64,000 nt of DNA, from positions 140,600-204,599 of the forward strand of contig JBGAUV010000002.1 in assembly GCA_044228445.1 (NCBI GenBank), given 5' to 3'. Below, piece after piece: positions 10,065 through 64,000 of the stretch (positions are counted from its first letter, which is position 1; the number at the start of each line of letters is the position of its first letter). The DNA comes from Minisyncoccia bacterium (GTDB taxonomy: Bacteria; Patescibacteriota; Minisyncoccia; Phycocordibacterales; PALSA-1337). Below the pieces are notes generated by a model. It was given only the letters and a program-made list of their open reading frames with translations. It had not been told where the DNA came from and did no database searches. A program made the translations under genes and the position numbers.

Positions 10065-10931
10065 ATGGAAAAAGATGAAAGGGAGGATTTTCTATTAAAG
10101 AGCTATCTAAATGATGTCCGTGATTACAATCTCATTTCCAGAGATAGAGAGGTTCAACTCGCTCAAGAAATAGCAAAAAGAAATAACGAAGCAAGAAATG
10201 AACTTGCTCTAGCAAATGTACGTTTAGTGATAAAAATCGCTATGGACTTTGACGGCTATGGTCTTTCTATTCATGACTTAATCCAAGAGGGTAACACTGG
10301 TCTCATGAAGGCTGTTGATAGATTTGACCCAACTAAGGGTGCAAAGTTTTCTACTTATGCAGCTTGGTGGATCAAACAGGCAATTAAAAGAGCTTTAAGT
10401 AACTCAGGATTTACCGTAAGGATTCCAGTTCATCTCGTGCAGTCAATTTCTAATTTGAATAGATTCAGAGAAAAATTTGAGAAGGAAAATAGAAGGTTAC
10501 CAAATGATGATGAAATTAAACAAGAACTAGGTCTTGTTGCTGATACAGTTGACGCAGCAAAGACCGTGCGAAATGGTAGAATATCACTTGATTCAAAATT
10601 TGGTGAAAGTGAGATAAGTCTTTCTGATATTCTCGAGGATGAAACATCTATCAATCCATCTTCTGCTAATGAGCTAGATGATCAACTTTCTAATTTAGCT
10701 GATCTAGTTAATAGATTAAGTAACAGAGAAAAAAACATAATCGAGTGTCGTTTTGGTCTTAATGGCAAAGAACAGATGATACTTGATGATATCGGTAAAA
10801 TTTATGGAATAACCCGAGAGAGAGTTAGACAAATTGAGGCAAAAGCACTTAAGAAGTTGCGGAATTGGCTTGATAAAAAGAATTCCGAAGTAGATCTTGA
10901 TTTGCCACCAGCAGTCTACAATGTTGGATAA
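10065..10931 (+). CDS. rpoD: RNA polymerase sigma-70 family factor (compact, 288 aa)
   Basis: Region 2 (DLIQEGNTGLMKAVDRFD, STYAAWWIKQAIKRAL). Region 4 HTH (LDDIGKIYGITRERVRQIEAKALKKLR). Strong RBS aaaggagg upstream. Confidence 0.85.
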   Translation: MEKDEREDFLLKSYLNDVRDYNLISRDREVQLAQEIAKRNNEARNELALANVRLVIKIAMDFDGYGLSIHDLIQEGNTGLMKAVDRFDPTKGAKFSTYAAWWIKQAIKRALSNSGFTVRIPVHLVQSISNLNRFREKFEKENRRLPNDDEIKQELGLVADTVDAAKTVRNGRISLDSKFGESEISLSDILEDETSINPSSANELDDQLSNLADLVNRLSNREKNIIECRFGLNGKEQMILDDIGKIYGITRERVRQIEAKALKKLRNWLDKKNSEVDLDLPPAVYNVG

Positions 10932-42531: not shown

Positions 42532-42649
42532 TGGTATAAATAATAACAAATTTATGGGAGAGTTAGTATTGACTGTTTTACTTATAAATGTTATTGTTTT
42601 TTTATGTATCAAGACCGGCCTCTCCTTGTGAGACAAGCCGGTTTTCTTA

Positions 42650-42900
42650 TTGACAGCATAAGATACTTTGTTAGAATATAAATACAGGTGGCGTGTTGAG
42701 GTTGAATCAAGCTCACGCCAATATATGTATCATATACTGCGCATGCGTATGTATGTGAAAACATCCTGATGATGAACCATGGTTCATCCGCATAACGGCG
42801 ACTTAAGTCCGTAAGGATCCTAGTTTATCTGGTGTAGTAAATTAGAGAGTTCGTCTATGTTATGTAGCACCATTGGCGCATTCAACCTGCGCCTTTTCTA
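42650..42900 (+). ncRNA. candidate ~215-nt small RNA (unclassified) with promoter and terminator
   Basis: TTGACA (42650-55), 16 nt spacer, TAGAAT (42672-77). Terminator GGCGCA-TTCAACC-TGCGCC-TTTTCTATTT (42875-42903). Body is GC-rich relative to the surroundings and contains the perfect 18-bp palindrome GATGAACCATGGTTCATC (42771-88). No ORF of plausible size. Confidence 0.4.
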
Positions 42901-54866: not shown

Positions 54867-56665
54867 CTACTTTTTTATTTTCTTCTTATTTGCCTCATTA
54901 ACCAGTCTTTCGAATTCATTTATATCACTTTCAATAGACTCTATACCTTTTTCAAATATATTATCCTTAATAATATCTATTCCTACAGATTTCAATATAT
55001 TTTCAGGTGTATCATTTCCTCCAGCAGAAAGAATTTTTTCTATCTTTTCCTTAAATGTTTTATCTTTATAATATTGACTTAATAAATATTTTGAAAGCAA
55101 ACCACCATAAGCATATGTATATACATAAAAGAAATATCTTAAATGATTCCATCCTACGAAAGAATACCCGTCCTTTTGTTCAAATTTAAATACTGGACCA
55201 AGATAATTTGACATATTTTTATTATGTAAATTAGCTATTTGTTCTTTTGATAAATATCCTTTTTCTTTTATTTCTTTATGAAGGTCCTTTTCATAGTTAT
55301 AACAAGCAATTTGTCTAAATACTGTAGAAATATCATTAGATATTTTATCGTGTAAAGCTGTAATTCTATCCTTTTTAGGTAATTGATTTATTGTGTGATT
55401 AATTGCTAAATTTTCAAAAAATGTACTTGCAGTCTCAGCGATTGAAGTAGAATAATCCATATCAAATATAGTATTATTTCTACATAATTCACTATGGAAA
55501 GCATGTCCCATTTCATGAGCAATTGTTCCAAATGATTTAAAACTATCTGTATGATTTAATAAAACGTAAGTAGGATTGGTATATGTTGATGAACAAAATG
55601 CTCCACCTTTTTTACCAATTTTTGGATATACATCTATTTGACCGTTTTTAATAAAGTTATCAAAAATATCAGAATACTTTTTATCAAATTCTCCAAATAT
55701 ATCCTTTAATATTTTTACACTATGTTCAAAAGTAAATTTTTGATTTATTTTACCTATTTTTTCATGTCTATCAGAATAAGATAATGTTTTTTGTTTCATT
55801 ATCTTTACTTTTATTTTATAAAATCTATTTGAAATTTTAAAACCTCTTGTAACTATATTTACAAGATTATCTACTACCTGTTTATCATTTCGATAATTTT
55901 TAATTGTGATTTCGTCTGGAGATTTTGCTCCTCTTAAATCATCGTCTATCTTTTTATTTTTAATTACAGCATTTATTTCAGCTTCAGAAAATACGGATAT
56001 TTCTTGTAACTTATCAGTTATTTTACTATATAAATCATCTCTCTCTCTTTCTTTTTTAGATCCTGAATCTTACCCAATGCTTCATTTATCGGTAATATCT
56101 TTCCTTTATATTTAACTGATAGTGAATTTAGTATTTTTGAATTCGTACTTGTCCATAGACCATGAGATACATTATATTTTAGACTCAATATTTGTTCTTC
56201 TTTATCGCTTAAGTAATACTTTGAATCAATAAAAATACATTTTAAAAGAAAATGAAATTTCTTTAATTTATCATTATTCAAAATTTCTTCTTGTCTCTCA
56301 GGTTTTATACTACCTAAAGAAAGCTTAAAGAATAGTATTTTATTTTCAGCTTTTGTTAAAATATCATTAAATTGATTCTTGAGTTGAATTACCTTTTTAT
56401 CACTAGAATTAAGAACTTCTCTATAGTAAAGATATAGTAAAGGATTTTTATCCGAAATAATTGTTATCTTTTCAAAATCATTTAAAGCTTCAAGTAGTTT
56501 ATTATCATCAATTAAATATTGTTTATCCTTATTATCATATTTTAAAGCAAAATCCTCATAGGCTTTTACTATATTTTCTATTGAAGTCCTTATATTATTA
56601 TCGTCTAGAGATTTATATAGTGGATTCAAATTCCACTCATATTTTTTATTCTTTTTATCTTTCAT
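54867..56665 (-). pseudogene. pepF: oligoendopeptidase F (M3 family) gene split into two ORFs (56018-56665 N-terminal part; 54867-55799 catalytic part)
   Basis: The downstream ORF has HEMGHAFH (HExxH). The upstream ORF looks like a PepF N-terminal domain. Same strand, 218-nt gap containing a CT-rich tract. Confidence 0.55.
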
Positions 56666-56677
56666 AGTCTATTTATA

Positions 56678-57517
56678 CTATACCCCCATTACTTCAGCAA
56701 TCTCTTTCTCTACACTAGCAATTTCTTGAGCTGTCATACCTATTTCATGCAAATAGTTTTTATGTTCAAGAATTTCTTTACATAGTACTATGCCTTTTGA
56801 AAGCAAAGTTTTTTTATGAGTATTTGAAAGTGAAGCCAAGCATGTAGAAGGATGAAGTCTTAATTGTTCTATTATATCTTGAAGATTTCCTTTGGCAGGA
56901 TAATTCCAACCAATTAACTTTATACCATTACATTCACTATATCGTATTGCTTGATCAGTAAACTTTGTATTTGTAATTATATATCCTTGTTTTAAACGAA
57001 GCTTTTTACCACCATATTCAAATGTATTTTCTTTCAAATCATCAAAGCGAGCTTTTACATAAAGAGCCACCTTTAAATCTGATTTTAAACCAAATTCATT
57101 GTGGAATTTTGCTTCTACCATAACCAAGTCTTCACCTTTCCAAGCAACAACATCCATTTCATGAGGTACACAACCACCAAAGACAGTTTGATCTGTAAGA
57201 GTTTGGTATCCCCAAGCATTAAATATCTTTGAAATATATTTTTCAAAAGGAAAACCATCTGGACCTAATTCTGATAAAGCTCTTCTAAGAGAATACTTTA
57301 TAGCAATAGGCATTGAGTATTGTCTAAGTAGTTTGAAAGCATGAGAATAAATATGGCCTGTCGTCATTCCATCTTTTATCTCTTTACCTATATGCTCTAT
57401 TATCTTATCTATTATCTCTTCATTACCACCTGCATTTAAAAGAGAATCTACAAGCTTTTGCTCTTCGAATAATTCTCTTGTTCCATCTGCTTTTGTAACG
57501 GTTATAAGGTGATTCAT
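56678..57517 (-). CDS. ATP-cone domain protein fused to a restriction-endonuclease-like (Mrr-type) domain
   Basis: N-terminal ATP-cone-like MNHLITVTKADGTRELFEEQKLVDSL. C-terminal HEMDVVAWKGEDLVMVEAKFHNE resembles the PD-(D/E)xK Mrr catalytic core. Confidence 0.45.
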   Translation of the reverse strand: MNHLITVTKADGTRELFEEQKLVDSLLNAGGNEEIIDKIIEHIGKEIKDGMTTGHIYSHAFKLLRQYSMPIAIKYSLRRALSELGPDGFPFEKYISKIFNAWGYQTLTDQTVFGGCVPHEMDVVAWKGEDLVMVEAKFHNEFGLKSDLKVALYVKARFDDLKENTFEYGGKKLRLKQGYIITNTKFTDQAIRYSECNGIKLIGWNYPAKGNLQDIIEQLRLHPSTCLASLSNTHKKTLLSKGIVLCKEILEHKNYLHEIGMTAQEIASVEKEIAEVMGV

Positions 57518-59584: not shown

Positions 59585-60841
59585 TTATATAGGTAGATTT
59601 GATGGTGCTTCCCCTTTCTTTGAAGGAACTCTGTCTAGTGTTGGAGTACCTGCAACCTGTCCTGGGAAATGATATACCGTTGCCAATTCCTCACTATTTA
59701 AAATTACAAACTTACTTGTCCAAGGTGCATGAAAGAAACATCTTCTTTTATATGCATCAAGAACATTTGCTCCATGCTTATCTCTTTTTTTATTTGCTGG
59801 ATCTTCCCATGGAACTCCTTTCATCTTTGGGTGCCATTTTTCACCATTAGTCTTGAAACCATTTAAATGTTCAGAACCGAAATGTTTGAAGCCAGCATTT
59901 ATACCTCCAGAACCAAATGGTGGGTTAAATTTATCTTTTTTATCTATATATAAAGCACGTATACCAACTTCAAAAGGGGTTTTTGATATACTTCTTTCAA
60001 GTGCATATACAATCTCTTTTTCTCCCTCAGTAATACTTAATGTTTGTCCTTTACCATCCTTATCCTTTCCTGCAATTTTTGTTTTTGAGTCTCTGATTAA
60101 AATATCATTAATTTCTTTTTTTGCTTCATCTTTCCAAGCATCTGTTTCACCAAATAAAGTTCCTGGTTTATGATCATCACCCTTATGTCCTCTTACGACA
60201 AACTGTATCCATATTTGTTGTTCTGGACCGAGACTTCCTAAAAATTCAATAAATGGAACAAGTGGGTCAACTTTATATTCTTCTTTTGGATCTTTATCAA
60301 GACCATAGTCAACATAGGTTTTTATTGGATAAGCATTCTTTTTTGTAAAAATAAACTCTCCTCCCCAAATTCTCCAAACTTTTGGATCAAATACGAAGGG
60401 TTTGGTATAGTCTTCTGCTTCTGTAATTTCTATTCCAGGAAATTGAGAATATAGCGCAGACATTAGATTGGATTTTCTCCTGTCTTCTGTTCTTATAAAA
60501 AATTTTACTCTTCCACCTAGCGATACTAATTCAAGAGAGTATTCAGGTCTCAATTCACCCTTCCACCATCTGCTAAATTTATTTCCATCTGAAGCATTGT
60601 ATATAGAATTTAAAAATACCTCCATTGCTAATGGTGATTTGAATATATCTTTTGGTAGTCTTATTTCAAGTAATGTGTATTTCAGATTTAAAATAAAGCT
60701 TGATTGAATATAGTCTAACCAAAGTGGCCAGAATACAATCCAAAGTATATAAGTAAGAACTAATGGAGACAGATAAATTATTATACTTATAACAGTTGGA
60801 AATATTTCTACTAAAAATGAATTATATAGAGATTCGAACAT
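59585..60841 (-). CDS. hypothetical membrane-anchored protein (418 aa)
   Basis: Two N-terminal TM helices, Lys-rich soluble domain. No motif. Confidence 0.45.
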   Translation of the reverse strand: MFESLYNSFLVEIFPTVISIIIYLSPLVLTYILWIVFWPLWLDYIQSSFILNLKYTLLEIRLPKDIFKSPLAMEVFLNSIYNASDGNKFSRWWKGELRPEYSLELVSLGGRVKFFIRTEDRRKSNLMSALYSQFPGIEITEAEDYTKPFVFDPKVWRIWGGEFIFTKKNAYPIKTYVDYGLDKDPKEEYKVDPLVPFIEFLGSLGPEQQIWIQFVVRGHKGDDHKPGTLFGETDAWKDEAKKEINDILIRDSKTKIAGKDKDGKGQTLSITEGEKEIVYALERSISKTPFEVGIRALYIDKKDKFNPPFGSGGINAGFKHFGSEHLNGFKTNGEKWHPKMKGVPWEDPANKKRDKHGANVLDAYKRRCFFHAPWTSKFVILNSEELATVYHFPGQVAGTPTLDRVPSKKGEAPSNLPI

Positions 60842-60885: not shown

Positions 60886-61917
60886 TTAACCAACAATAGA
60901 ATACTTACCGTCTTTATCTTTTTTAAAATGCTTTTGGTTTTGGAGATTAACCATAATTGTATTGTCCTTTACATATCTTTCCTTCAGAACTTTCGCAATT
61001 ATTTCTTCTTTTGTAAGAGGACCATTCTTTTCTATAATTTTCTTTATAACATCTCTAACAACACCTGACATATAGCCCCATTCCTTAAGAGCATAAAGTC
61101 CTCTACCTACTAGTACAAAACGAGGATCTTTTATAAGTTCATTATGAGTTGTAGCAACATGAGCTTTCTTTTTGAAAACTTGAGTAATTTGTTTTGCAAC
61201 TTCACGGAAATGTATTGGAGAACCATGTTTCCTTATAACTAGGAAAGCATAATCTCTCATACCTTTTGTTTTTACATTTGGAGAATGAGAAACACCCCAT
61301 TCACCTATTGCATTTTTGCCAATAGCCTTTGATATTGAAAGCCATCTCTTCATTACTTCTTGATTTTTATATTTTTCTGAGACCTCACCTAGATGAGATA
61401 TGAACTTTGATATCATTTCTGATTCTGGTAATAGATCTTCATTTGTTAGGCTTGAGTATAGCTTCTTTAGAGATTCTTCAACTTGTCTTGCTACAGCTTC
61501 ATTTACATGTAAACGATGTTTGAAATGTTCATCTTCTTTTCTTTTCTTAAATGAATCACCAATAACCAAGATAAAGTTTACACTATTTTGTAGTGATGTA
61601 TCTTTTGAAACTGAACCAAGGAAATCTTCCTCAACAACAATTCCTCCTAGTGTATGTATTAAACCTTCAAGCTCATCAGATATAGCTTTTTCTGCTTTAT
61701 AAGCATCTGACTTTCTTATATTTTGTATAGCATAGTTTTCGATCTGACGAACACGTTCACGTGTAATACCATATATTTTACCAATAGCATCTAGAGTCAT
61801 CTTTGTAGTGCTAGTTCCTAGTCCATAACGCTTTATAATTACGTCTTTAGCTCTCTCAGGGAGAACTGATAGTAAACGCTTAACAGATTGCTTTGGTTTA
61901 AATGTTATATTTGCCAT
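60886..61917 (-). CDS. sigma-70 region-4 HTH protein with C-terminal HARE-HTH-like domain
   Basis: N-terminus LDAIGKIYGITRERVRQIE is 18/19 identical to rpoD region 4. C-terminal SPIHFREVAKQI...IKDPRFVLVGRGLYALKEW fits the HARE-HTH pattern of the RNA polymerase delta N-terminal domain. Confidence 0.5.
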   Translation of the reverse strand: MANITFKPKQSVKRLLSVLPERAKDVIIKRYGLGTSTTKMTLDAIGKIYGITRERVRQIENYAIQNIRKSDAYKAEKAISDELEGLIHTLGGIVVEEDFLGSVSKDTSLQNSVNFILVIGDSFKKRKEDEHFKHRLHVNEAVARQVEESLKKLYSSLTNEDLLPESEMISKFISHLGEVSEKYKNQEVMKRWLSISKAIGKNAIGEWGVSHSPNVKTKGMRDYAFLVIRKHGSPIHFREVAKQITQVFKKKAHVATTHNELIKDPRFVLVGRGLYALKEWGYMSGVVRDVIKKIIEKNGPLTKEEIIAKVLKERYVKDNTIMVNLQNQKHFKKDKDGKYSIVG

Positions 61918-62003
61918 ACTTTTAATTTGTTTGTTGATTAATTTATATCATTAGCTTGTAAATAAGTCAAACTTAACGAAAATGTATGAATTTTTACATT
62001 AAA

Positions 62004-64000
62004 TTAAACAACAATATTAATTAATCTATCTTTAACGATAATTACCTTTTTAATTTTATTTTGTTCAATGATTTTCTTTATTTCAGGCATATTTAAAGCC
62101 GTATTTTGAATATAATTATCATCCATACCCTTTGAAGTTTCAAAACTAGCTTTTATTTTTCCATTAACTTGAACAACAATTGTAATTTTATTTGAACTAG
62201 TTTTTGAAATATCTGCATTTGGCCAAATCTGTGTATGAATTGAAGCTTTATTACCTATTATTGACCATAGTTCTTCTGTAACATGTGGAATAAATGGAGA
62301 TAAAATCAAAATTAAATTTTCAAAAGTCTTTTTTGAAATTGCTTTTTCTTTTTCCAAATCATTTACAGCGATCATAAGTGAACTTACTGCCGTATTAAAT
62401 GACATATTTTCAATATCGTCACTTACTTTTTTAATAACTTTATTTATCGTTATTTCCGTACTTTCTGTATCTTTATACCCTTTTGTATAATTTATTTTAT
62501 CTTGCAATTTCCACACTCTCTCTATAAATCTTCTAGGACCAGCTATATTATCTGTTTCCCATGATATAGCTTGATCAAAAGGACCCATAAACATTTCATA
62601 TAGACGTAGAGTATCGGCACCAACATTGTTTACAATATCGTCTGGGTTCACAACATTGCCTCTTGATTTTGACATTTTTTCTCCTCCTCCTGCTAATATA
62701 AGTCCATGTGATGTTCTCTTTTGATAAGGTTCTTTTGTAGATACAACTCCTATATCAAATAAAAACTTATGCCAAAAACGAGAATACAATAAGTGAAGAG
62801 TTGTATGTTCCATACCACCATTGTACCAATCAACTGGAGTCCAATATTTTAGCTTTTCTTTATCAGAAAGTGCCTTTTTATTTTTTGGATCAGTATATCT
62901 CAAATAATACCAACTAGAACCCGCCCAGTTAGGCATTGTATCTGTTTCTCTTTTTGCTTTACTTTTACACTTTGGACATTTAACATTTACCCATTTTGTA
63001 ATAGCTGCAAGTGGTGATTCACCATTTTCTGTAGGTAAATAATTTTTAACTTTTGGAAGTTTTATTGGTAAATCCTTTTCTGGAACTGGTACTATTCCAC
63101 ATTTATTACAATGAATTACAGGAATAGGTTCACCCCAATATCTTTGTCTTGAGAATACCCAGTCTCTAAGTTTGAATTTATTTACCCAATTTCCTTTTAC
63201 ATATTTTGTAATATCTTTCTTAATATCCTCTGACTTTTTACCGTTAAAATCTTTTGAATTTATAAGGATACCGTTTCCTGTATATGCTTGAGATTTATTT
63301 GTAAATCTATGTAACCATATACTCATTTCAGCATGAGTCATTTTTTCTTCATTTACATCTTTTTCATTCATCCAAATAGTTTCGTGTGCATCACTTTCTT
63401 CAACTGAAACATCGTCTTTATCCTCATTTTCTAGAGTAAATAGAACAGCGGTTGTTAAAGATATTCTATTTTCACCTTTATGTGCAGCATAATATTCTGC
63501 CATAACTTGTCCTCCTAATATTCTGGGATCTTTTAAATTTTTATATCCTGTTTCCTCATAAACTTCTCTTTTTGCTGCAGTAATAACATCTTCTTTATCT
63601 TCAACACCTCCCATTGGAAAAGTTGTCCATGGATGTTTCTTCCATTTCAAACCAAGTATTCTGCCATTTTTAGGATTATAAACTATTGCATGAACATTTC
63701 TTCTTGTTACTGTTTTCTTTCCCTGAATAGGAGGATTTCTTTTATCTACTACATGTGGAATAACTACTTCTTTTATAGGTAGACCGTATTTATTTGCAAA
63801 TACATAATCTCTATCATCATGCGCTGGCACCGCCATAACAGCTCCAGTACCATAATCTCCAAGTACATAATCACTGATCCAAACTGGTATAGTTTCTCCA
63901 TTAGCTGGGTTTATTGCACTAATTCCTTTTATGCATACCCCTGTCTTTTCTTTATCAGCATTTGTTCTTTCTATTTCGTCTTTTGCTTTTGCTTGTGATA
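62004..64000 (-). CDS. leuS: leucyl-tRNA synthetase, 3' portion (gene continues beyond window) with inserted Nudix domain
   Basis: MAVPAHDDRDYVFANKYGLPI, RDWVFSRQRYWGEPIP, EKMSKSRGNV (KMSKS). My in-frame translation upstream of the track ATG (63836) reaches the window edge with no stop: ...AINPANGETIPVWISDYVLGDYGTGAVMAVPAHD. Insertion contains GGVEDKEDVITAAKREVYEETGY. Confidence 0.9.
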   Translation of the reverse strand, partial: SQAKAKDEIERTNADKEKTGVCIKGISAINPANGETIPVWISDYVLGDYGTGAVMAVPAHDDRDYVFANKYGLPIKEVVIPHVVDKRNPPIQGKKTVTRRNVHAIVYNPKNGRILGLKWKKHPWTTFPMGGVEDKEDVITAAKREVYEETGYKNLKDPRILGGQVMAEYYAAHKGENRISLTTAVLFTLENEDKDDVSVEESDAHETIWMNEKDVNEEKMTHAEMSIWLHRFTNKSQAYTGNGILINSKDFNGKKSEDIKKDITKYVKGNWVNKFKLRDWVFSRQRYWGEPIPVIHCNKCGIVPVPEKDLPIKLPKVKNYLPTENGESPLAAITKWVNVKCPKCKSKAKRETDTMPNWAGSSWYYLRYTDPKNKKALSDKEKLKYWTPVDWYNGGMEHTTLHLLYSRFWHKFLFDIGVVSTKEPYQKRTSHGLILAGGGEKMSKSRGNVVNPDDIVNNVGADTLRLYEMFMGPFDQAISWETDNIAGPRRFIERVWKLQDKINYTKGYKDTESTEITINKVIKKVSDDIENMSFNTAVSSLMIAVNDLEKEKAISKKTFENLILILSPFIPHVTEELWSIIGNKASIHTQIWPNADISKTSSNKITIVVQVNGKIKASFETSKGMDDNYIQNTALNMPEIKKIIEQNKIKKVIIVKDRLINIVV

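Follow-up and report, generated by a model that had tools for sequence, protein, structure and literature searches.

A sigma region 4 and HARE-HTH protein conserved in Patescibacteria, a candidate -35-reading transcription factor or RNA polymerase accessory protein

Primary group 1 sigma-70 factors (RpoD/SigA) combine region 4 (4.1-4.2) with regions 1.2, 2 and 3, which serve core binding and -10 melting, and the delta subunit of the Firmicutes RNA polymerase (RpoE; 8x6g_E, 9a6y_A) carries an N-terminal HARE-HTH domain, with a D-x-RF...vG...W-L-x-W signature, ahead of a long polyanionic disordered C-terminal region. HARE-HTH domains are associated with DNA-modification systems, and a 2012 abstract by Aravind and Iyer is said to place them in delta, ASXL, restriction enzymes and bacterial proteins with features of the RNA polymerase alpha subunit and of sigma factors; if so, the pairing of a sigma-like part with a HARE-HTH would not be without precedent. 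A protein of 343 amino acids (aa) that joins a sigma-70 region 4 (sigma4) domain to a HARE-HTH domain is encoded in the window, a stretch of 64,000 nucleotides (nt) from a Minisyncoccia bacterium of the Patescibacteriota (contig JBGAUV010000002.1, positions 140,600 to 204,599). In contrast to RpoD/SigA, region 4 stands alone at the N-terminus of this protein, without regions 1.2, 2 and 3, its basic activator-contact patch is unconserved, and four winged-helix-type domains are added to it. The HARE-HTH domain shares the delta signature, but it is internal (aa 218-281), it is accompanied by sigma4 and two further winged-helix-like domains, and the disordered tail of delta is replaced at the C-terminus by a basic winged helix that is folded.

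The explanation favoured here, to which about an even chance is accorded, is that the sigma4/HARE protein is a core, Patescibacteria-wide transcription factor that lacks sigma region 2 and reads -35 hexamers, or an RNA polymerase accessory protein, and that it is probably autoregulated. Its coding sequence comprises the following features:

60886-61917, reverse strand: the whole open reading frame (ORF; 343 aa, ATG start), encoding sigma4, linker helices and four winged-helix-type domains
61708-61896, reverse strand: domain of sigma-70 region 4 (aa 8-70), built of four helices, among them the helix-turn-helix of region 4.2
61738-61794, reverse strand: the 19-mer LDAIGKIYGITRERVRQIE (aa 42-60) with the region 4.2 recognition helix, in which R53, E54, R55, R57 and Q58 correspond to R584, E585, R586, R588 and Q589 of E. 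coli sigma-70
61651-61707, reverse strand: linker helices (aa 71-89), the least conserved section
61504-61650, reverse strand: winged-helix-like domain A (aa 90-138), neutral; G91 and W136 are conserved, and Foldseek matches it to tandem winged helices
61282-61503, reverse strand: winged-helix domain B (aa 139-212), three helices and a beta-hairpin, neutral and variable
61075-61266, reverse strand: HARE-HTH winged helix (aa 218-281), basic (isoelectric point, pI, ~10), the most conserved of all the domains
60889-61065, reverse strand: C-terminal winged helix (aa 285-343), basic (pI 9.7)

Pfam assigns Sigma70_r4 (PF04545) to aa 15-69 (E 2.3e-15; 56.3 bits, cutoff 24.1) and HARE-HTH (PF05066) to aa 220-280 (E 1.6e-7; 32.0 bits, cutoff 25.9), and both the score above the Pfam gathering threshold and the winged-helix fold place the latter domain in the HARE-HTH family. 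The first-pass annotation of this DNA had recognised the domain correctly but had put it at the C-terminus, which is instead occupied by another winged helix. Sigma regions 2 and 3 were not found, Pfam and NCBIfam detecting region 4 alone, and the protein therefore cannot act as a sigma factor. Matches to the sigma-family models of NCBIfam are confined to aa 9-84, fall far under the full-length cutoffs and correspond to the C-terminal region 4 of the RpoD, RpoS, SigA and MzaA models, while a sequence search of the PDB returned sigma region 4 chains as its sole matches. Anti-sigma families are absent among the Pfam, NCBIfam and PADLOC matches of the protein. A profile match to the CW_7 repeats of the Cpl-7 lysozyme (5i8l_A), the fold of which is presumably different, was dismissed as spurious, its score being summed over a repeated short motif. 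The delta-like character that had also been proposed holds at the level of the domain but not of the family, as the model for the delta subunit of low-GC bacteria (TIGR04567) scores 31.0 bits, under its cutoff of 42. Because of this score, the internal position of the HARE-HTH and the basic folded C-terminus that replaces the acidic tail, the protein is not a delta subunit, and the name 'DNA-directed RNA polymerase delta subunit' given to its homologues by JGI is a widespread over-annotation.

A first AlphaFold prediction from a shallow alignment (77-97% identity) gave a predicted local distance difference test score (pLDDT) of 60 and an unreadable middle region, and was replaced by an AlphaFold2 prediction from a diverse alignment of 100 members with 33-55% identity to the window protein, all 100 of which contain both Pfam domains. 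The resulting model has a mean pLDDT of 97.1 and a predicted template modelling score of 0.88, the latter indicating that the protein would form a single compact body. The modelled sigma4 helices span aa 8-16, 21-31, 42-49 and 53-69, and the HARE-HTH is the third of the four winged-helix-type domains that follow them. Across the family, sigma4, the HARE-HTH and the C-terminal winged helix are basic (median pI ~10 and net charge +5; median pI 9.9 for the C-terminal winged helix) and have the highest mean top-residue frequencies in the protein (0.54, 0.69 and 0.57, respectively), and the two middle winged-helix domains are neutral and variable. No whole-protein analogue was found in the PDB, where the Foldseek and profile matches are domain-sized (sigma4, winged helices, tandem winged-helix arrays and delta), and the matches in a viral fold library are limited to sigma4 or winged-helix domains. 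In the body of the protein, winged helices follow one another as they do in the tandem winged-helix proteins of the RPC62/Rpc82, Dcc1, UFL1-DDRGK1 and TFIIE-beta type; Foldseek aligns 210-290 of its columns to such eukaryotic and archaeal arrays, at an identity of ~10% and a template modelling score of ~0.2, and a few family members match the TFIIE_beta and TBPIP winged-helix models. The domain arrangement differs, however, and the likeness is a structural analogy that carries no claim of common descent or function.

Several of these features would also suit a stoichiometric accessory subunit of RNA polymerase working through protein contacts, with the HARE-HTH on beta-prime and/or sigma4 on the beta-flap tip, where it would displace or compete with region 4 of RpoD in an anti-sigma-like or sigma-appropriation-like manner, DNA reading being secondary. 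This alternative is rated rather unlikely. The HARE-HTH is homologous to the N-terminal domain of delta, which has been modelled or seen on RNA polymerase (PDB titles 9a6y and 8x6g), the best Foldseek matches of sigma4 are sigma4/beta-flap-tip chimeras, the hydrophobic region 4 positions L19, V26, I27, Y31, L33 and I67 are conserved, and the protein as a whole is conserved at the level of core machinery. The conserved hydrophobic residues do, however, also build the core of the domain and hence do not discriminate, while binding to the flap alone would not require invariant residues that contact DNA bases. The missing acidic tail and the delta model score count against a subunit role as well, as does the retention in this genome of a complete sigma4 in RpoD and of the C-terminal domain of the alpha subunit (alpha-CTD).

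The housekeeping sigma factor encoded in the same window provides the reference against which the sigma4 domain can be read:

10065-10931, forward strand: RpoD, housekeeping sigma factor (288 aa; Pfam regions r1.2, r2, r3 and r4)

When the window is translated in all six frames, the 19-mer of the sigma4/HARE protein has exactly one further near-match, LDDIGKIYGITRERVRQIE (10782-10838), which lies inside RpoD and shares 18 of 19 residues, in agreement with the first-pass annotation. The similarity is not limited to this segment, since the N-terminus aligns with RpoD region 4 over 54 aa at an identity of 54% (E 4e-13) and the domain is recognised by Pfam as Sigma70_r4. At the DNA level, 41 of the 57 bases of the 19-mer are the same, and synonymous differences affect 13 of the 18 codons whose residues are shared, from which it follows, as had been proposed, that the sigma4 domain is not a recent copy of rpoD and has been maintained by selection on the protein. 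The genome retains both the complete sigma4 of RpoD and an RpoA with its alpha-CTD, and the sigma4/HARE protein is therefore an addition to the transcription machinery, not a replacement. A role as a substitute for a missing alpha-CTD or sigma4 was excluded on these grounds, and no alpha-CTD was detected in a domain scan of the 100 diverse members.

Region 4 of the protein contains a helix-turn-helix with the residues for -35 recognition. The numbering follows a sequence that we take to be that of E. coli sigma-70, and the mapping is consistent with the HMMER boundaries for 4jk1_X. R584, E585 and R588 have been defined by genetics as determinants of -35 specificity, and base-specific contacts by R584 and E585 are seen in the T. 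aquaticus sigma4/-35 structure (PMC2613000). Among the 100 diverse members, the equivalents of R584, E585, R586, R588 and Q589 are conserved in 100, 100, 99, 100 and 99%, respectively, and those of R562, T572, L573 and G577 in 100%, while K593, R596, K597 and R599, the positions of activator contact, are free to change. Alternative sigma factors with other -35 specificities differ at the R584, E585 and R588 positions. The invariance of these three equivalents thus argues that the sigma4 domain still reads a hexamer of the TTGACA type.

The same hexamer recurs upstream of the gene itself, where the following near-consensus promoter is predicted:

61942-61970, reverse strand: predicted promoter of the sigma4/HARE gene, with TTGACT at 61970-61965, a 17-nt spacer ending in TGA, and TATAAA at 61947-61942

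A homologous element is kept in related loci, and across 84 loci the top recurrent upstream hexamers are TTGACT (58), TTGACA (44) and TGATAA (40). Within the 150 nt upstream of the homologues, forward TTGACW occurs at a density of 8.97 per kb, as compared to 0.36 per kb in the remainder of the loci. At least one forward TTGACW is found in 97% of these upstream regions versus 15% of 258 other upstream intergenic regions, and at least two are found in 36% versus 1%. Adjacent TTGACW pairs upstream of the gene are spaced at 10-12 bp (12 pairs) or 17-18 bp (six pairs), whereas 897 control TTGACW sites in the same loci yielded no pair at 10-12 bp and one at 17-18 bp. The usual layout of these arrays is TTGACA-N5/6-TTGACA-N11/12-TTGACT, with a spacer sequence that varies by locus, and they are situated 60-140 nt before the start codon in loci L002, L005, L020, L031, L044, L045, L046, L050, L065, L068, L076 and L078. 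Distant members mostly have one hexamer, and one has an inverted pair. A generic scan for promoters found no more sites near the gene than in shuffled sequences, and the signal emerged only in the comparison across loci. TTGACW together with an extended -10 element precedes many genes of the window, including rpoD, and the site predicted for the sigma4/HARE protein is therefore the normal -35 element of the organism. The proposal in the first-pass annotation that the protein could compete for -35 elements thereby gains indirect support as regards their engagement, from residues conserved at 99-100%, from promoters that use TTGACW and from the hexamer-rich region upstream of the gene. Elsewhere in the window, two sites with TTGACW and an extended -10 element lie 81 nt apart in an intergenic region (42569-42690, forward strand) with no ORF of at least 70 aa within 250 nt downstream, and these paired sites may be the promoters of a small ORF or of an RNA gene.

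The family to which the protein belongs is large, with at least 8000 scored 90%-identity clusters homologous to it and at least 581 species-representative genomes that encode a homologue. The top 120 homologues are 342-351 aa long, 77-99% identical and covered to ~100%, and all 120 contain both PF04545 and PF05066, so that full-length collinear homology assigns the window protein to a family of ~345 aa with this domain combination. At NCBI they are named 'sigma factor-like helix-turn-helix DNA-binding protein' (Paceibacterota, Taylorbacteria, Patescibacteria). An exhaustive search with aa 75-343 against 1.84 billion 50%-identity representatives gave 1245 matches at E<=1e-3, of which 795 reach E<=1e-10 and 434 reach E<=1e-30; almost all are proteins of 320-400 aa aligned from about residue 80 onward, and the motif T-x-E-R-[IV]-R-Q-[IL] is present within the first 90 residues of 114 of 124 full-length representatives. 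All informative titles among the genome matches listed are of Patescibacteria lineages, the generic label 'Saccharibacteria' of several series of metagenome-assembled genomes being judged unreliable, and the divergent members with names come from Patescibacteria and Campbellbacteria. The phylogenetic distribution of the fusion, named in the first-pass annotation as a point to be checked, is thus that of a large Patescibacteria family of fixed architecture and not that of a one-off fusion. Two longer members, one fused to SecF (P0158; the secF gene adjoins the sigma4/HARE gene there) and one to AAA_14 without sigma4 (P0122), were set aside as artefacts of gene calling or assembly.

The protein is under strong purifying selection. 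In a comparison of five genes over 38 genomes, its median identity to the window protein is 69.9%, as opposed to 55.3% for leucyl-tRNA synthetase (LeuRS), 56.1% for MnmA, 44.8% for the DUF8128 protein encoded downstream and 40.1% for YceG, although its figure may be a little too high, the loci having been picked by similarity to the sigma4/HARE protein. The 18/19 identity in region 4.2 might suggest a partial copy of rpoD, either recent or in decay, whose C-terminal similarity is due to chance, but this reading is refuted by the synonymous codon differences, the thousands of clusters that share one architecture, the presence of both domains in every one of the 100 diverse members and the compact, confidently predicted fold, and its probability is negligible.

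No relatives were found in a phage search, and a plasmid search returned a single relative outside the Patescibacteria, BCM94557.1 (568 aa), annotated as 'RpoD' and encoded on the Abditibacteriota plasmid pIAD-21 (AP024153.1; locus L086). It shares with the window protein a collinear sigma4, a GG-containing element, a HARE-like domain and a C-terminal winged helix, at 25-32% identity in the aligned pieces, but it differs in an extra N-terminal part of ~220 aa and in being plasmid-borne. In this locus (L086, 26-5092), BCM94557.1 lies 1 nt upstream of a gene for a 1119-aa DrmMI/type IIG-like methylase, and DUF8128 is not there. The locus is probably one of defence or modification. The 'RpoD' annotation is wrong, as region 4 is the sole sigma region in BCM94557.1, and the adjoining methylase, which fits the association of HARE-HTH with DNA-modification systems, hints at the origin of the module. 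This relative would be consistent with an accessory function in phage defence or restriction-modification, similar to MzaA, the sigma factor of the MZA anti-phage system, or to the HARE-HTH modules of restriction enzymes, as would the finding that MzaA is the best NCBIfam and PADLOC match of the sigma4 part. Such a function is nevertheless very unlikely for the window protein: the MzaA match is restricted to the 60-residue sigma4 part and reaches 61 bits against a cutoff of 800, neither mza-type nor other defence genes were found in the neighbourhood, which is a fixed housekeeping one (leuS or secF, yceG, mnmA) with no adjacent nuclease or methylase, and the protein is among the most conserved of the neighbourhood and without a detected phage relative.

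The gene downstream is the most constant partner of the sigma4/HARE gene:

59585-60841, reverse strand: DUF8128-family membrane protein (418 aa), downstream of the sigma4/HARE gene after a gap of 44 nt

Its assignment is based on precomputed tables and pairwise homology, the ORF being 31% identical over its full length (E 3e-58) to a protein recorded as PF26449 (DUF8128). Proteins of this family are membrane proteins of ~420-450 aa that share an 'EELAT-x-H-x-PG' motif, conserved at the C-terminus, and have no solved or annotated relatives. A DUF8128 homologue lies directly downstream of the sigma4/HARE homologue in all 83 loci with enough contig, and also in six of the seven informative distant members (35-44% identity), in which the position upstream is taken instead by secF, an HTH_8 gene or a Na/Ca exchanger. 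In the window, no terminator-like site was found in the 44-nt gap, and co-transcription of the two genes is therefore likely. A DUF87/TrwB_AAD_bind (VirD4/HerA-like) ATPase that matches HerA/mad8 models comes after DUF8128 in two lineages, suggesting an uncharacterised membrane ATPase module in some Patescibacteria; the DUF8128 and ATPase loci are found at L083 7095-10840 and L084 8075-11425, the corresponding window locus being DUF8128 at 59585-60841. In one divergent lineage (L088, 3186-4880), the DUF8128 neighbour is absent, the homologue comes right after a 564-aa sigma factor with regions 2 and 4 and a match to the DnaA C-terminal helix-turn-helix model, and an RNase III gene lies downstream; the position next to a sigma-factor gene speaks for a role in transcription.

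The constancy of this pairing raises the alternative that the sigma4/HARE protein is the DNA-binding adaptor of a membrane DNA-handling module with DUF8128 and, in some lineages, the VirD4/HerA-like ATPase, acting in translocation, uptake or segregation, its helix-turn-helix domains recognising DNA, and possibly its modification state, without a role in transcription. The downstream linkage with a varying upstream neighbour speaks for it, together with the ATPase of two lineages and the methylase beside the relative outside the Patescibacteria, and VirD4-like ATPases are abundant in these bacteria, mostly away from virB4 (bioRxiv 10.1101/2025.01.22.634366). Adjacency carries little weight, however, where the gene order of small genomes is well conserved, YceG and MnmA following as well, the ATPase is absent from the window and from 80 close loci, one lineage dispenses with the DUF8128 neighbour, and the invariant -35-type residues and the promoter hexamers better match a role in transcription. 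This adaptor function is accordingly rated as distinctly unlikely.

The wider neighbourhood is largely stable, with the order leuS, sigma4/HARE gene, 418-aa ORF, yceG and mnmA on one strand in 71-78 of the 80 close loci. The leuS gene upstream (62004-64000, reverse strand) runs past the end of the window, its frame being open beyond the listed ORF start, and it holds this position in 73 of 80 related loci. The encoded LeuRS has an unusual architecture, with a NUDIX domain (Pfam E 1.3e-14) inserted ~40 residues after 'AVPAHD', just past a remnant of the editing domain. Further downstream, a 279-aa protein (56678-57517, reverse strand) consists of an ATP-cone joined to the catalytic domain of an Mrr-type restriction endonuclease; it has homologues at this position in 43 of 80 related loci and no PADLOC match. 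Beside it, an oligoendopeptidase F-like gene is apparently split into two ORFs (54867-55799 and 56018-56665, reverse strand) separated by ~220 nt, with Peptidase_M3_N in one and Peptidase_M3 in the other, which could represent a frameshift, a pseudogene or a genuinely split gene.

When these lines of evidence are weighed, several points tell against a -35-reading transcription factor. The phased arrays occur in about 12 of the 84 loci and not in the window, which has a single TTGACT, the compared upstream regions are homologous and hence not independent, and a consensus -35 element may simply reflect a strong promoter. The conserved sigma4 residues could serve a role other than DNA binding, the invariable link to DUF8128, joined in some lineages by the VirD4/HerA-like ATPase, is left unexplained by a purely transcriptional role, and the methylase-adjoining relative of the Abditibacteriota suggests that the HARE module has its context in DNA modification. 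In the favoured explanation of a -35-reading factor or accessory protein, sigma4 would bind TTGACW hexamers, the -35 elements of the organism's RpoD, while being rigidly joined to the four winged-helix-type domains, of which the two neutral ones would be scaffold-like and the two basic ones (the HARE-HTH and the C-terminal winged helix) would touch flanking DNA and/or RNA polymerase. Promoter use may be modulated either through occupancy of, or competition for, the -35 element or by aiding the polymerase at promoters with extra upstream hexamers, and the protein probably also regulates its own hexamer-rich promoter. Established here are the domains and their fold, the constancy of the DNA-reading residues, the strong purifying selection, how large the family is and where it occurs, the hexamer pattern of the promoter and the DUF8128 linkage, whereas binding to TTGACW, any polymerase contact, the sign of the regulatory effect and autoregulation are features that we infer. 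A bolder version, possible but considered rather unlikely, would make the protein a universal and essential second reader of the -35 element, in which sigma4 binds TTGACW, the HARE/winged-helix body provides a tether to RNA polymerase or flanking DNA, promoter recognition or global occupancy is shared with RpoD, autoregulation proceeds via 11-bp-phased arrays, and a coupling to a membrane complex may exist through DUF8128.

The combination of PF04545 with PF05066 is already catalogued in the Pfam tables and under the generic NCBI product name, but no functional description of the HARE-HTH/sigma region 4 combination, of that product name or of DUF8128 was found in the literature. As far as found, the four-domain winged-helix body, the invariance of the -35 residues, the exceptional conservation, the linkage to DUF8128 and the hexamer-rich, sometimes phased, promoter region are apparently undescribed. 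Patescibacteria (Candidate Phyla Radiation) account for much of the diversity of bacteria and have tiny genomes with few regulators, and to our knowledge hardly any work has been done on how they transcribe their genes. With its strong conservation and an intact -35-reading domain outside a sigma factor, the sigma4/HARE protein is a strong candidate for a lineage-specific core component of transcription. Should it compete or cooperate with RpoD at the -35 element, these bacteria would control global promoter use in a manner with no known counterpart in model bacteria, and the predicted site, the key residues and the candidate autoregulated promoter defined here would offer a direct experimental handle on it.

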